Source: Eledone cirrhosa
Lineage: Eukaryota
Length of the DNA: 64,000 nt
Direction of reading: 5' to 3'
Assembly: GCA_964016885.1 (NCBI GenBank)
Contig: OZ024753.1
Coordinates: 37,076,001 to 37,140,000 of the forward strand
The notes below the pieces were generated by a model. That model searched no databases. It was not told the origin of the DNA and saw only the letters and a program-made list of their open reading frames with translations. Made by a program: the position numbers and the translations under genes. Below, piece by piece: positions 22,352-61,316 of this stretch (the stretch's first letter is position 1; each line of letters opens with the position of its first letter).

Positions 22352-22436
22352 AAAAGTTCTATTTAAATTGTTGGGATACAACAAGCAAATATTTTTATAA
22401 CTGATATAAAGCATTCAACGAATATTTGGAGTAAAA

Positions 22437-22679
22437 ATACGATATTAACAAATGGAAATTATATTTATAAAACCACATTTATTTCATTATACATATTTCA
22501 AGGACACCAAGTTAAATTATGGTGTGCTTTATAATATAGATCAGTTTTATAAATAAAACTGATCTATATTATATTTTATCTGATGAAAGCACACCATAAT
22601 TTAACTTGGTGTCCTTGAAATATGTATAATGAAATAAATATGGTTTTATAAATATAGTTTCCATTTGTTAATATCGTAT
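22437..22679. repeat. Nested inverted repeats (94-bp arms plus a 42-bp inner hairpin) carrying an H3 hammerhead
   Basis: 22437-22530 is the reverse complement of 22586-22679. The inner palindrome spans 22531-22572. Confidence 0.85.
22573..22635 (+). ncRNA. Type I hammerhead ribozyme (family H3) inside an inverted repeat
   Basis: attttat-CTGATGA-aagcacacca..tggtgtcctt-GAAA-tatgta-TA-atgaaat. Helix II differs in sequence from the 61317 copy but still pairs. Confidence 0.7.
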
Positions 22680-22991
22680 ATATATATATATAAGAGAAAG
22701 TCAAAAAGAGTAGAGAGACGTTGAATGAATTAAACTGCACTAAGGTGACCCCTGCCGAACTACGTCAAATATTCTATTAGTTACATTTTATTTATTATTA
22801 TTTTTTGTTTTGTTTTTGCAAAGTAAAAAAAAAACCTGCTGTTATGACTGCCAGGTTTATGTAAAATACGTCATATAACTCGGGCAATATGCACTAGTTT
22901 AGTTGCAGTTTCCTCGCAGCGTGAGAAACTACAGATGCAACATGAATTAACATGTAAATTACAGTGGTTAGGGTAGTGTATAGATCTCTCG

Positions 22992-23333: not shown

Positions 23334-23551
23334 TAGGAACAAGTATGACCCCGACGGCAGAGTTCAAGCCGTTTCGACGGCTAATTCTTTTTTATTTATT
23401 TATTTATTTTTTTAGTCCAGAATTAGCCGTCGAAACGGCTTGAGCTCTGCCGTCGGGGTCATACTTGTTCCTATTACCCACTCTACTACCCTAAGTATTG
23501 AGTACTTTGGTGCGTTATAGTCCATCTGGTTCCTTACCACATTTCCTTCGT
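23334..23551 (+). mobile_element. Family H2 fold-back element (hammerhead 3' half plus tail)
   Basis: Arms 23334-23388 and 23419-23473. The right arm reads gtc-GAAA-cggc-ttgagctct-gccg-TC-gggg. TA-flanked. Confidence 0.65.
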
Positions 23552-23926
23552 TATATATATATATAGGAGATGAATAAATTGGGCATGAGACTCGTTTATT
23601 ACCAAATGCCAAAAGAGCTCAATGTATTAACGACTTATAGAAGAATGCAAAACAAAGCCTAGTACTGGGATCATTTCTTCTTCTATATCTCTTTCTCATT
23701 TTCTCTCTTTCATGTTCTATCCTTCTCTGGAAGAAATCTGCTGTATTCAGACCTGGAGAGGAGATGGGCTCTGCCAGGTCTTAAAAATGTCCTAGAAACG
23801 TTGTATGTATGTCAATATGTTTCGACCGCGACTCCTTCAAAGGTTACAGGATACGAAAAACGACAGTATATGCTACAGGGTCTACACTAAACTAATTTGG
23901 CACTATATACGACTCCTTTATAGTAT

Positions 23927-24137
23927 GGCGCGTGGCTGAGTGGTTAGAGAATTGGATTCGCAATCGTGAGGTTGTGAGTTCGATTCCCGGACCAGGCGAT
24001 GCGTTATGTCCTTGAGCAAGACACTTTATTTCAAGTTGCTCCTTTTACCTGGAGTTACGACCGATAGATAGTTTAAGCAATTAGAAAGACCCATAGAAAC
24101 ATTGTTTCCTCGGTCCGATTTGACGAAAGTCGATCGA
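23927..24137 (+). mobile_element. SINE-B (tRNA-derived, CORE-like domain)
   Basis: A box TGGCTGAGTGG, B box GTTCGATTC, CORE-like tgtccttgagcaagacactt, tail ..ggtccgatttgacgaaagtcgatcg. Confidence 0.85.
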
Positions 24138-32464: not shown

Positions 32465-34340
32465 TTCACATCTGGTTTGCTATATTACCTGATTTAACGG
32501 ACTATATTTCACATCTGGTTTGCTATATTACCAGCCTTGATAGACGATATTTCACATCTGGTTTGCTATATTACCTGATTTAACGGACTATATTTCACAT
32601 CTGGTTTGCTATATTACCAGCCTTGATAGACGATATTTCACATCTGGTTTGCTATATTACCAGCCTTGATAGACGATATTTCACATCTGGTTTGCTATAT
32701 TACCTGATTTAACGGACTATATTTCACATCTGGTTTGCTATATTACCAGCCTTGATAGACGATATTTCACATCTGGTTTGCTATATTACCAGCCTTGAAG
32801 GACTATATTTCACATCTGGTTTGCTATATTACCAGCCTTGATGGACTATATTTCACATCTGGTTTGCTATATTACCAGCCTTGAAGGACTATATTTCACA
32901 TCTGGTTTGCTATATTACCAGTCTTGATGGACTATATTTCACATCTGGTTTGCTATATTACCAGATTTAACGGACTATATTTCACATCTGGTTTGCTATA
33001 TTACCAGCCTTGAAGGACTATATTTCACATCTGGTTTGCTATATTACCAGCCTTGATGGACTATATTTCACATCTGGTTTGCTATATTACCAGCCTTGAT
33101 GGACTATATTTCACATCTGGTTTGCTATATTACCAGCCTTGAAGGACTATATTTCACATCTGGTTTGCTATATTACCAGCCTTGATGGACTATATTACAC
33201 ATCTGGCTTGCTATATTACCAGCCTTGAAGGACTATATTTCACATCTGGTTTGCTATATTACCAGCCTTGAAGGACTATATTTCACATCTGGTTTGCTAT
33301 ATTACCAGCCTTGAAGGACTATATTTCACATCTGGTTTGCTATATTACCAGCCTTGAAGGACTATATTTCACATCTGGTTTGCTATATTACCAGCCTTGA
33401 AGGACTATATTTCACATCTGGCTTGCTATATTACCAGCCTTGAAGGACTATATTTCACATCTGGTTTGCTATATTACCAGCCTTGAAGGATTATATTTCA
33501 CATCTGGTTTGCTATATTACCAGCCTTGAAGGACTATATTTCACATCTGGTTTGCTATATTACCAGCCTTGAAGGACTATATTTCACATCTGGTTTGCTA
33601 TATTACCAGCCTTGAAGGACTATATTTCACATCTGGTTTGCTACATTACCAGCCTTGAAGGACTATATTTCACATCTGGCTTGCTATATTACCAGCCTTG
33701 AAGGACTATATTTCACATCTGGTTTGCTATATTACCAGCCTTGAAGGACTATATTTCACATCTGGCTTGCTATATTACCAGCCTTGAAGGACTATATTTC
33801 ACATCTGGCTTGCTATATTACCAGCCTTGAAGGACTATATTTCACATCTGGCTTGCTATATTACCAGCCTTGAAGGACTATATTTCACATCTGGTTTGCT
33901 ATATTACCAGCCTTGAAGGACTATATTTCACATCTGGCTTGCTATATTACCAGCCTTGAAGGACTATATTTCACATCTGGCTTGCTATATTACCAGCCTT
34001 GAAGGACTATATTTCACATCTGGCTTGCTATATTACCAGCCTTGAAGGACTATATTTCACATCTGGCTTGCTATATTACCAGCCTTGATGGACTATATTT
34101 CACATCTGGTTTGCTATATTACCAGCCTTGATGGACTATATTTCACATCTGGTTTGCTATATTACCATCCTTGAAGGACTATATTTCACATCTGGTTTGC
34201 TATATTACCAGCCTTGATGGACTATATTTCACATCTGGTTTGCTATATTACCAGCCTTGATAGACGATTTTTCACATCTGGCTTGCTATATTACCAGCCT
34301 TGAAGGACTATATTTCACATCTGGCTTGCTATATTACCAG
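32465..34340. repeat. 43-bp minisatellite, ~43 copies
   Basis: Unit ctatatttcacatctggtttgctatattaccagccttgaagga. Confidence 0.95.
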
Positions 34341-34811
34341 ATTTGAGGAACTATTCAAGAGATGCAGTTTCCTGCGAAACAGAACGTTATGGGTTTTACA
34401 TTTTTTTTTAACAGAAAAAACTATATATATATTTGGAACATTAAGGACCTTGTACTTTTACCTTGAAATCTTTGAATATGGGGACGCTAATGAGAAAAGT
34501 ACGTTTGATGCTAATACAACTTAGAACATCACCCATATATATATATATACAAGACATTTAAACATACATAGTCAGAGAATATATATATATATTAAGTTAA
34601 AAATGTACATCTACATATGCATACTGAAATACTAGTATGCATATGAATACACACACGTATACATATGTAGATGTAACAAGTCTTTCACTGGTTACTTTAC
34701 TGTGAGTAACCCAGCTATTCTGTATGTAAACACACAGACAAACCGGTTTTTAGAGTCATACTGGTTTTCGAGGAAACACCTTTCCTCTATTCTCCAGAAA
34801 GCCAGACAAGG

Positions 34812-34856
34812 AATATTGAACTAGTTTCGTTGTTGTTACAACTCATCAGCAATATT
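34812..34856 (-). ncRNA. Minimal type I hammerhead ribozyme (copy 1)
   Basis: Minus strand AATATTG-CTGATGA-GTTGT-aaca-ACAAC-GAAA-CTAG-TT-CAATATT: intact core, 5-bp helix II, palindromic helix III, 7-bp helix I, GUU triplet. Confidence 0.8.
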
Positions 34857-35278
34857 TACCTATCTACCGGCCTTTCTGGAGAATCGTAAAAGCACATATC
34901 GTTATATGCTTTTTCTATGAAAATTAGTAGTGGGCAGACTAATTTGCATAGAGTGTGAGTACGCACCGGTTCAGCGGAGACGATAAAAACAAATAACGAA
35001 ACGAAATTAAATTTCGTTTCGTTTGTAACTCACTTTTGTATGACTGACGCTTAAACAATTAAGTTAAAAATGTACATCTACATATGCATACTGAAATACT
35101 AGTATGCATATGAATACACACACGTATACACATGTAGATGTAACAAGTCTTTCACTGGTTACTTTACTGTGAGTAACCCAGCTATTCTGTATGTAAACAC
35201 ACAGACAAACCGGTTTTTAGAGTCATACTGGTTTTGGAGGAAACACCTTTCCTCTATTCTCCAGAAAGCCAGACAAGG

Positions 35279-35323
35279 AATATTGAACTAGTTTCGTTGT
35301 TGTTACAACTCATCAGCAATATT
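35279..35323 (-). ncRNA. Minimal type I hammerhead ribozyme (copy 2)
   Basis: Identical to 34812-34856, 467 nt away. Confidence 0.8.
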
Positions 35324-36441
35324 TACCTATCTACCGGCCTTTCTGGAGAATCGTAAAAGCACATATCGTTAATTGTTTAAGCGTCAGTCATACAAAAGTG
35401 AGTTACAAACGAAACGAAATTTAATTTCGTTTCGTTATTTGTTTTTATATATATATATATTCTCTGACTATGTATGTTTATAAGTCAGTCTTGTATATAT
35501 AGATGATGTTCTAAGTTATATTAGCATCAAACGTACTTTTCTCATTGGGAGCAAGTAAAATATTTAGATATATTAGGCTGCAATTTTTATGAAATTACAT
35601 TAGATTAGATAAACTTAAATAGAGAAATGTTAATACTTCTCAGATGAAAATTCGGTAGAAAAAAATAGTTCATCCTCCCACCAGAATAAAAATTAAAAAT
35701 TTTAAATAAAACCAAGCGTAAAAGATAAAAAGAAAATAGGAAAAGAACTTTTAAAAAGGTTAAAGTGTGACCTTGATAAAATCTGGAACATTTACTGGTT
35801 CTTCTACCTTGTCACACATCCCGAAATTCCTCAGTTGGCTTTATAGAGATCATAATAAGCGTTGATATTTTCAGTTGACAACGAGGTAGGTGGAGGATAG
35901 GGAAAGATGGCTGACATCCAGATATTATTGCCTTGTAATAAATGTTATATGACAGAGTAAAATACGTATTCTATAAAATGTCAGGGTGTTATGTTTATTA
36001 TTAATGTAGTGAAAAGAGATTTGAACTAGGTTGAATTAGGCGCAGAAATTAGATGTGTGTGGTTAAAGAAATTTGTCTCGCAACCAACAAATATGGTTTC
36101 CTGGTTCGATTTGGCAACAGAAGTTTGTCCTCCACCCTATTCTTCTTGATTTACAACAAAGCTTTTTTTTTACAATATTTTTCTGCAGAAAAACGAACTA
36201 CAATCATCGATGTATGAATACCTGTTTGTGCTGTTAGATTTAGCCATTATATATGCATACACATACATGAAATACTCAAAACTTTGCTCATCAATTTCAT
36301 GAGTAGGCTGCTTCGCTGATCGTTTCAACTGGAACACTCTTCGTTGAAACCGACAGAGATCCAATATACAAATTTCGCTGAGAGTTGAGCACTTGCGCTT
36401 TTTGTTCTAATACACAGGTAAAGAAAACACAAACACATACA

Positions 36442-52185: not shown

Positions 52186-52385
52186 GGTACGTTATTCCGG
52201 GTTGAATCGGAGGTAACCACAGTAAGTAAGGTACTCAATACATAGCAGAGTATGAAAGTTTTAATATAGATGAGATTCTATAAGACTAGAACTGTTTCAT
52301 TCTTTAGAAATCATCAGGAATCCCATCAGAGATTCCTGATGATTTCTAAAGAATGAAACAGTTCTAGTCCTGTAGAATCTCATAT
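52186..52385 (-). mobile_element. Family H1 HHR element with 5' inversion (back-to-back hammerheads)
   Basis: 52271-52324 is the reverse complement of 52329-52382. The tail at 52205-52265 matches the tails at 23070-23125 and 36895-36948. TA-flanked. Confidence 0.7.
52329..52381 (+). ncRNA. Type I hammerhead ribozyme (family H1)
   Basis: gagattc-CTGATGA-tttc-taaa-gaat-GAAA-cag-ttctagtc-ctg-TA-gaatctc: perfect 7-bp helix I, GUA triplet, U-U at the base of helix II. Confidence 0.75.
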
Positions 52386-53105: not shown

Positions 53106-53296
53106 TAGGAACGAGTAAGACCCCGACGGCTGAGCTCAAGCCGTTTCGACGGCTAATTCAGTCCAGAATTAGCCGTCGAAACGGCTTGAGCTCAGCCGTC
53201 GGGGTCTTACTCGTTCCTATTACCCACTCTACTACCCTAAGTATTGAGTACTTTGGTGCGTTATGGTCCATCTGGTTCCTTACCACATTTCCTCCG

Positions 53297-53336
<40 letters not shown>

Positions 53337-53483
53337 CGAAGGAATTGTGGTGAGGAACCAGGTGGACCATAACGCACCAGAGTACTCAATACTTAGGGTA
53401 GTAGAGTGGGTAATAGGAAAAAGTCCAGAAATAGCCGTCGAAACGGCTTGAGCTCTGCCGTCGGGGTCTTGAACTTTTTCCTC
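53106..53483. mobile_element. Two family H2 fold-back elements tail-to-tail across a (TA)n tract
   Basis: Perfect hairpin 53106-53159/53166-53219, tail to ~53298, (TA)n, inverted tail 53333-53420, then another hammerhead 3' half at 53422-53483. Confidence 0.7.
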
Positions 53484-57396: not shown

Positions 57397-57632
57397 AGGA
57401 AAGGAGTCAAGACCCCGACGGCTGAGCTCCGGCCGTTTCGACCGCTAGATCCGAACGGATATAGGAAAGATCAGCAAAAAGATTCTGGATCGCGTTCGGT
57501 TCTAGTTGTCGAAACGGCCGGAGCTCAGCCGTCGGGGTCTTGACTCTTTTCCTATTACTCACTCTCCTACCCTAGGTATCGAGTACTCTGGTGCGTTATG
57601 GTCCACCTGGTTCCTTACCACACTTTCTTTGT
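57397..57632 (+). mobile_element. Family H2 fold-back element (diverged subfamily)
   Basis: Arms ~57397-57457 and 57494-57553; GAAA-cggc-cggagctca-gccg-TC-gggg; same tail. Further fragments at 60928-60985 and 61052-61145. Confidence 0.65.
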
Positions 57633-60929: not shown

Positions 60930-61316
60930 AGTCGAGGCCCGACAGCCGAGCTCTTGCCGTTTCAGTTGTTAGTTCCGAACTTATTCTATCCTGATTCATA
61001 TATTGTCCTGTAGAAGCCAATGCTATATAAAAGAATGATATATATATATATAAAGAGGGTGTGGTAAGATACCAGGTGGACCATGATGCATCAGAGTACT
61101 CAATACTTAGGGCTCCGGCCGTTTCGACAGCTAGATCTGAACTTCAATGTAAAACTTAAATAATTATATATATATATATATATATAATTTGTCATATATA
61201 TATAGTTTGTCATGTTAGTACTTATGGTATATAAATATTGAGTTTTGTTGTAATTAATCACTGCCAAGACTGGAATTGAGCCATCAGCACAGTTGAGGTA
61301 TGTCACACATCAATTT

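Follow-up and report, generated by a model that had tools for sequence, protein, structure and literature searches.

The hairpins of family H2 in Eledone cirrhosa are minimal insertions of a Hydra-like Penelope retrotransposon in (TA)n. Their most probable source is dual priming on one element RNA, with run-off of both cDNAs at the RNA 5' end and head-to-head joining. The hairpins were analysed in a window of 64,000 nucleotides (the whole stretch of DNA, contig OZ024753.1, positions 37,076,001 to 37,140,000) and in the genome at large. In unit coordinates +1 is the A of a TYAGT motif in loop II of the element's hammerhead ribozyme; the first base of the ribozyme core lies 43 nt upstream of +1, cleavage is predicted after +41, the two fixed insertion ends fall at +58 and +138, and the first ATG is at +232.

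Results

Anatomy of the hairpins in the window

A sequence-only reading of the window had described three copies, at 23334, 53106 and 57397, each with a hammerhead-derived right arm and an inverted left arm. All three were confirmed, each with (TA)n on both flanks. Their right arms run through the helix II 3' strand, GAAA, helix III, GUC and GGGG into a common 80-nt tail. The description of the hairpins as perfect held for 53106, where 55 of 55 nt are paired (a 3-nt TAT overlap with the target counted in) around a 6-nt loop, but not for 23334, with 1 mismatch in 56 nt and a T-rich spacer of 30 nt, or for 57397, with 4 of 63 nt mismatched and a spacer of 35 nt. The interval 53106-53483 contains two insertions from different subfamilies with one (TA)n tract common to both. 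In the second (53336-53481) the tail-bearing arm is the inverted one and is shortened, and the 108-nt tail-to-tail repeat in this interval is a by-product of the two neighbouring insertions. The features are as follows:

53108 to 53159, minus strand: insertion 1, inverted arm, unit +58 (inner fixed end) down to +7
53160 to 53297, plus strand: insertion 1, tailed arm, unit +1 to +138, opening at the A of TYAGT; helix II 3' strand at 53166-53177, then GAAA and helix III; predicted cut after 53200; inner end at 53217; then the 80-nt tail
53298 to 53335, no strand: (TA)n target tract common to insertions 1 and 2
53336 to 53424, minus strand: insertion 2, tailed arm, inverted and shortened, unit +138 down to about +50
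53422 to 53481, plus strand: insertion 2, tail-less arm, +1 to the inner end, with a 3-nt overlap with the other arm
23336 to 23388, minus strand: copy 23334, inverted tail-less arm, +58 to +6
23389 to 23413, no strand: copy 23334, T-rich filler, absent from the parent
23414 to 23551, plus strand: copy 23334, tailed arm, +1 to +138
57398 to 57457, minus strand: copy 57397 (older B subfamily), inverted tail-less arm, ending near +2
57458 to 57492, no strand: copy 57397, 35-nt spacer
57493 to 57632, plus strand: copy 57397, tailed arm, about +2 to the outer end
61052 to 61142, minus strand: further B-type copy with an internal deletion, +2 to +32 joined to +79 to +138

The spacer of 57397 had no genome match beyond the window itself and differs from the loop of B-type parents. 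A pattern scan of the window found no H2 copy with a CUGANGA core, as the sequence-only reading had noted. Its placement of the symmetry centre in loop II was right as to the loop, the centre sitting at the loop's 3' edge; its view that the CUGAUGA half had been replaced by an inverted copy was wrong, as both the loop and the 5' strand of helix II are absent, not replaced in situ. In an Rfam scan of the window, the 150 matches listed of 355 included no hammerhead at H2, where they comprised only low-scoring miRNA-like hairpins.

Other repeats were seen in the window. A different repeat at 34300-35900, arranged as a partial tandem with an inverted piece, resembles a pLTR from another Penelope family. 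It carries two hammerheads with the canonical CUGAUGA core (Rfam HH9), at 34796-34867 and 35263-35334 on the minus strand, both below the gathering score. A short palindrome at 52270-52385 carries two whole minimal hammerheads, with CUGAUGA on both strands and a (TA)n end. A 99-nt inverted repeat at 22432-22684, with a CUGAUGA core in the right arm and none in the left, is likely another Penelope-type stub, and the sequence at 23926-24040, with a tRNA-like head and the look of A and B boxes, is probably a SINE.

Family size and parent element

A 32-nt helix III motif had 34,362 exact matches in the genome, and short head-to-head palindromes of the family numbered 16,851; the reversed control gave 0 in both searches, so that chance cannot account for the family. 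Unselected DNA of 661 kb, chosen without regard to sequence yet partly adjoining dense regions, held 46 tailed and 42 tail-less arms, and from this sample we infer about 100,000 insertions genome-wide.

Of the first 30 matches examined in the genome, three ran on upstream into a GIY-YIG frame, and a protein search led to a tandem array with a period of 3,531 bp. The 3,531-bp unit comprises one 784-codon frame, with an RT followed by a C-terminal GIY-YIG domain (YRDD and YIG-type motifs), a 3' UTR of about 1.1 kb and a hammerhead fold. The earlier proposal that the repeat is the hammerhead half of a retroelement was right. The encoded protein had 2,049 homologues, the top match carrying PF01541 and the best full-length ones being about 40% identical; a Pfam scan of the protein directly returned 0 families. 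The element has the marks of an endonuclease-bearing PLE: a single frame joining an RT to a C-terminal GIY-YIG endonuclease, partial and full tandems as pseudo-LTRs with an inverted 5'-truncated copy, and a one-sided tail in 86 of 89 short insertions, which is 80 nt long where 30-40 nt is usual. Since the target is (TA)n, target-site duplications are unreadable.

The array spanned by L121 and L122 (G000:C1:437198001-437218000) has 4.5 near-identical units in which a variant at unit position 884 alternates with a period of two, the pattern expected from a two-unit template or from block duplication at a later time.

The parent hammerhead ribozyme

An intact parent had been predicted to read gacccc-CTGANGA. 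The parent does have the helix I partner (ACCCC) and the helix II 5' strand, and it was the core that departed from the prediction, being mostly UUGANAA (U3-A8). By genome counts the element lacks the canonical hammerhead core of the Hydra clade in most copies (YUGANAA 7,509 versus YUGANGA 93, of them 17 CUGANGA), and on account of this noncanonical core it is named 'Hydra-like'. All four bases occur at core position 7. In a hand count of the first 100 listed A8 matches, the core pair 3-8 was U-A in 75 and a C·A mismatch in 25; the C-G and U·G states are found in older copies.

In the three helices around the core of the parent's type I hammerhead, 89% of alignment cells were paired, as against 31-50% in slid controls, and 4 pairs showed two-sided change. 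The covariation score of 0.140, which was reached in 1 of 500 shuffles, gives modest support, as the alignment has related rows, one row that is a stray 10-nt filler and one that is misaligned. Folded freely, the pLTR RNA scored no better than shuffles (z −0.22 and −1.48), and we therefore claim no structure for the tail. In a tree of core states the deep branches carried C-G and U·G, and the shallow ones U-A and C·A; the tree was made from 39 of 93 rows, with positions 3 and 8 masked and a midpoint root in place of an outgroup, so that no order of the core changes is claimed.

Outer ends and the origin of the two arms

All insertion ends lie at unit +58 or +138, and at both sites TAT comes next in element and target alike. 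Under strict arm mapping, which was used for the counts out of 89 and 86, 86 of 89 short insertions combined a +58 end with a +138 end, the difference being the 80-nt tail. Long two-armed insertions with both outer ends captured follow the same rule of one +58 and one +138 end. An anole Penelope protein is described as extending both target strands in vitro from two sites inside the RNA that delimit the tail (PMC11167929). We infer that in Eledone one site is used per strand, and that the RT-endonuclease is dimeric. At L121:5813-5925 TAT comes after each of the fixed ends, together with a C/T-rich CTAC motif that is similar at the two; within the tail, a CTACTAC stretch is predicted to pair with sequence just past +138.

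The two arms of an insertion are closely related. In 81 of 90 pairs both arms belonged to one subfamily type; the exceptions were mostly indel misregisters or single changes, and two (L185, L209) look chimeric. Arms differed by a median of 1 mismatch per 43 nt within an insertion and 6 between insertions. At least 12 subfamily types were found, each with matched arms, and long arms have private variants in common. In multi-unit insertions the terminal units agree with each other and not with the internal units (3 sites in 2 insertions), which for those two insertions argues against a circular monomer template.

Matched arms are also expected if a single cDNA or antisense RNA folds back at the template end and is copied to +58, with the centre later trimmed or deleted; self-priming has been proposed for head-to-head palindromes by Arkhipova et al. 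(PMC3846280). At least three long insertions are near-symmetric (L123, L124 and L127, two of them picked for equal frame lengths), and the palindrome arms of L276:2506-2771 and L295:612-834 end at one upstream point, −32 (the start of helix II) and −83 respectively. Against such a fold-back, the tail-less arm reached further toward the 5' end in 29 of 86 short insertions under every reading and the tailed arm in 33, with 24 ambiguous. A tail-less arm that is the longer one would not come from copy-back of the tailed arm without later deletion, an argument that is weakened because palindrome centres can be deleted after insertion. Long insertions are also head to head, and the arms of most end at unrelated points, hundreds to thousands of bases apart; L121/L122, for instance, pairs a 280-nt arm with a 16-kb arm. 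Fold-back at the template end also needs a second precise stop at +58, and it does not fit the occasional chimeric pairs. On balance we regard it as unlikely.

The 5' limits at +1 and +42

The further-reaching arm stopped between −3 and +7 in 84 of 89 short insertions, and in the unselected 661 kb, 34 of 42 tail-less and 21 of 46 tailed arms started between −4 and +16. The expectation that breakpoints are non-random was thus borne out by their strong clustering in loop II. TYAGT is constant across subfamilies and the remainder of loop II diverges; we take this motif to resemble the insect initiator.

At 83 loci the sequence read on past +138, giving 51 long arms (through the ORF) and 32 short ones, with L372 (which starts at −31) and L261 (a long divergent arm) assigned by hand. 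Only 1 of the 51 long arms started at +1 to +16, compared with 15 of the 32 short arms, and 45 of 51 long arms passed through; +1 is therefore no road block. In the direct tandem template jumps (n = 24) the segment copied first ended at −3 to +5 in 17, at +40 to +42 in 7 and nowhere else. Jumps of the first class are as expected for an RT reaching the end of its template, where R2-type jumping takes place.

The base before +1 was G in 24 of 52 non-T cases, compared with 49 of 219 nearby bases (p = 0.0009). T preceded +1 in 68 of 120 truncated arms and is uninformative, since it can be either parental sequence or A-tailing. Full-length L1 carries a cap-derived G (PMC11702581), which the extra G at −1 resembles. 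According to PMC2377424 the Penelope of D. virilis has an internal promoter; in the Eledone unit a Drosophila-type downstream promoter element, as given there, was not visible at the expected place. The +1 site is likely to be the start of the element RNA. Almost no full-length arms start at +1, so the source of long templates is not explained by this putative promoter alone.

Template jumps (L244-L272, L333-L385, short class) landed on RNA 3' ends from about +200 to +970, many of them from +200 to +360, hinting at short transcripts with both priming sites. Extra priming sites at +200 to +360 were considered and rejected, these being template jumps.

The jump cluster at +42 (7 of 24) is significant (p = 5e-7), and each of the three segments of L350 ends at +42. 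A hand count of the first 50 of 757 very short palindromes gave 16 with both arms exactly at +42 and non-parental filler, 4 blunt and 5 ambiguous; in a second subfamily, with 178 places, 4 of the first 50 were +42 junctions. Starts at +39 to +44 were seen in only 2 of the 88 unselected arms, making this class a few percent of insertions. In three tag groups the U-A core was present in 75 of 77, 13 of 27 and 2 of 7 long copies, and the yield of +42 ends relative to +1 stubs was 6.8, 2.5 and 0.5 in the same order. Ends at +42 are thus scarcer where long copies often have C3·A8, with no tie to helix III strength, although the counts are small and subfamily ages differ as a confounder. The scarcity with the C·A mismatch suggests ribozyme cleavage in vivo.

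Dual priming could be right while +1 and +42 are points at which the RT stops at RNA structure or protein, or while +1 is a splice-acceptor-like processing site. The TYAGT motif does read as a pyrimidine tract plus YAG, and +42, at the 3' foot of helix III, is a natural pause site. Passage of most long arms through +1 and the extra G at −1 speak against this reading, as does the dependence of +42 frequency on the core 3-8 pair rather than on helix III strength; the arms also retain the AG and have no upstream exon in common. We consider stops or processing slightly less likely even than fold-back at the template end.

Junctions between the arms

Among 70 short insertions there were 66 distinct junctions, and of 69 classified, 33 had overlaps, 26 filler and 10 blunt joins; these counts used a tolerant arm extension that overstates some arm lengths. 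A sample biased by a query beginning at +2 (L001-L030) was left out of the junction, breakpoint, arm-limit and unselected counts and kept in those of the base before +1. One long insertion, L133 (G000:C2:78829001-78839000), has a 273-nt piece of the 3' UTR caught between its two arms.

The sequence-only reading had attributed the palindromes to a cDNA that folds back on helix II and primes itself, the RNA stem setting the inversion point. Clustering of the centres in loop II and the match between arms would agree with this, and stem-centred junctions do exist, on helix III (25 of the first 50 of the 757 very short palindromes), a class that may come from end-joining or from deletions that arose afterwards between short direct repeats. 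A cDNA primed on its own helix II should retain the parental loop and 5' strand of that helix at the palindrome centre, whereas 0 of 90 junctions kept the 5' half of the loop or the parental helix II 5' strand, and fold-back on helix II is thereby refuted for the main class. Moreover, the arms go beyond the stem into the loop and halt at +1. That the stem dictates the inversion point is contradicted by the long insertions, which invert at unrelated points; their asymmetry, the fixed +58 outer end and tailed arms that lack the other arm's sequence, as at 53336-53481, are all left unexplained. As a general account, self-priming on helix II is very improbable.

Equally improbable is an already palindromic master, whether a MITE or another short non-autonomous element, which would account for the huge copy number and uniform outer ends but not for the diversity of junctions (the earlier reading had itself named descent from one such master as a finding that would overturn it), for matched arms within each subfamily type, or for asymmetric ends and sizes continuous up to full elements; it is refuted as a general origin, with secondary copying of some stubs possible.

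Discussion

According to the dual-priming model, both strands of a cut (TA)n site would prime on one element RNA at two fixed sites, a dimeric RT-endonuclease presumably using one site per target strand. Both cDNAs would run off the 5' end of the RNA and then be joined head to head, with host end-joining trimming and linking the arms. If +1 is a capped transcription start, an RNA starting there would be without the catalytic 5' half of the ribozyme and would have its priming sites just 58 and 138 nt from its start, so that stubs would result. Read-through RNAs from upstream would give long and tandem copies, and a minority of them may be self-cleaved at +42 by the U3-A8 ribozyme. That this whole cycle operates in the genome, with dual-site priming by a dimer, a loop promoter seeding the roughly 100,000 stubs and germ-line cutting of read-through RNA by the U3-A8 ribozyme, is proposed tentatively, as a conjunction somewhat more likely to fail in some part than to hold throughout.

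The hairpins are ordinary debris of Penelope insertion. So large a family makes a good test bed, with base-level predictions for the two priming sites, the start site and the cut site, and its natural ribozyme mutants serve as controls.

Comparison with known systems

The head-to-head hairpin layout is already known (PMC8557442, PMC3846280, PMC11167929); what the Eledone family adds is the rule of one end of each kind, two classes of template jump, an excess of G at −1 and the association of +42 ends with core pairing. A literature search, with most subscription journals outside its scope, found no paper mapping such ends. PMC8557442 and PMC11167929 state as open the origin of tandem, inverted and tailed PLE insertions and in vivo cutting by the hammerhead.

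Endonuclease PLEs (Craig et al. 2021, PMC8557442; Arkhipova et al. 2013, PMC3846280) are described as having insertions with an inverted 5'-truncated pLTR and a one-sided tail. They resemble the Eledone family in the head-to-head inverted copy, the one-sided tail, the partial and full tandems, the hammerhead in the pLTR and the microsatellite target. Their tails are 30-40 nt, compared with 80 nt in Eledone, where stubs of 58 plus 138 nt dominate, and the sharp 5' limit in loop II and the second at the cut site are mapped here. In these papers the mechanism is left open or self-priming is proposed, on an antisense template in PMC3846280.

With the Hydra clade, as characterised in PMC8557442, the element shares the change of DKG to DKT, the CxCX5C linker, the CxxC and CxH motifs around conserved E and N, the (TA)n target and the single RT-EN frame; at the place of the N-terminal RWK it reads RWR. 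Hydra-1_Obim is a different family, its listed protein and ribozyme differing from those of the 3.5-kb Eledone unit, and the element's motifs were not found in the supplement of that paper. The Hydra ribozymes listed there are all CUGANGA with short loops, whereas in the Eledone element the core is U3-A8 or C3·A8 and loop II measures about 32 nt.

The anole Poseidon element PAc (Frangieh et al. 2024, PMC11167929) is alike in the extension of both target strands, the AT-rich target and the pair of internal start sites, which lie downstream of the hammerhead and delimit the tail. For PAc the paper reports no difference in start site between strands, while in Eledone the two ends of an insertion use different sites in 86 of 89 cases, and both Eledone sites carry a TAT match to the target. 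It likewise reports no RNA reads ending at the ribozyme cut; in Eledone, genomic ends at the cut exist.

The Cercyon PLEs of Schistosoma (Cervera and de la Pena 2014, PMC4209133) have the same compensatory U3-A8 core change, and their hammerheads likewise have a long helix II, a short helix I and a palindromic loop III. The Eledone family differs in mixing C-G, U·G, U-A and C·A states and in a helix III of 5 pairs.

Two other categories of repeat were rejected. The non-LTR retrozyme (bioRxiv 10.64898/2026.07.22.740005) consists of short non-coding tandem units, each with a whole hammerhead, whereas the Eledone stubs have half a ribozyme and the tandem units encode protein. A MITE, with one master, terminal inverted repeats and a common interior, does not match the diverse junctions and subfamily-matched arms.

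Twin priming of L1 (PMC11702581) is alike in that the second target strand primes on the RNA, the cDNAs are linked by end-joining and a cap-derived G is found. L1 inverts non-overlapping parts at variable sites, whereas the Eledone cDNAs overlap and have fixed starts, and the product is a palindrome.
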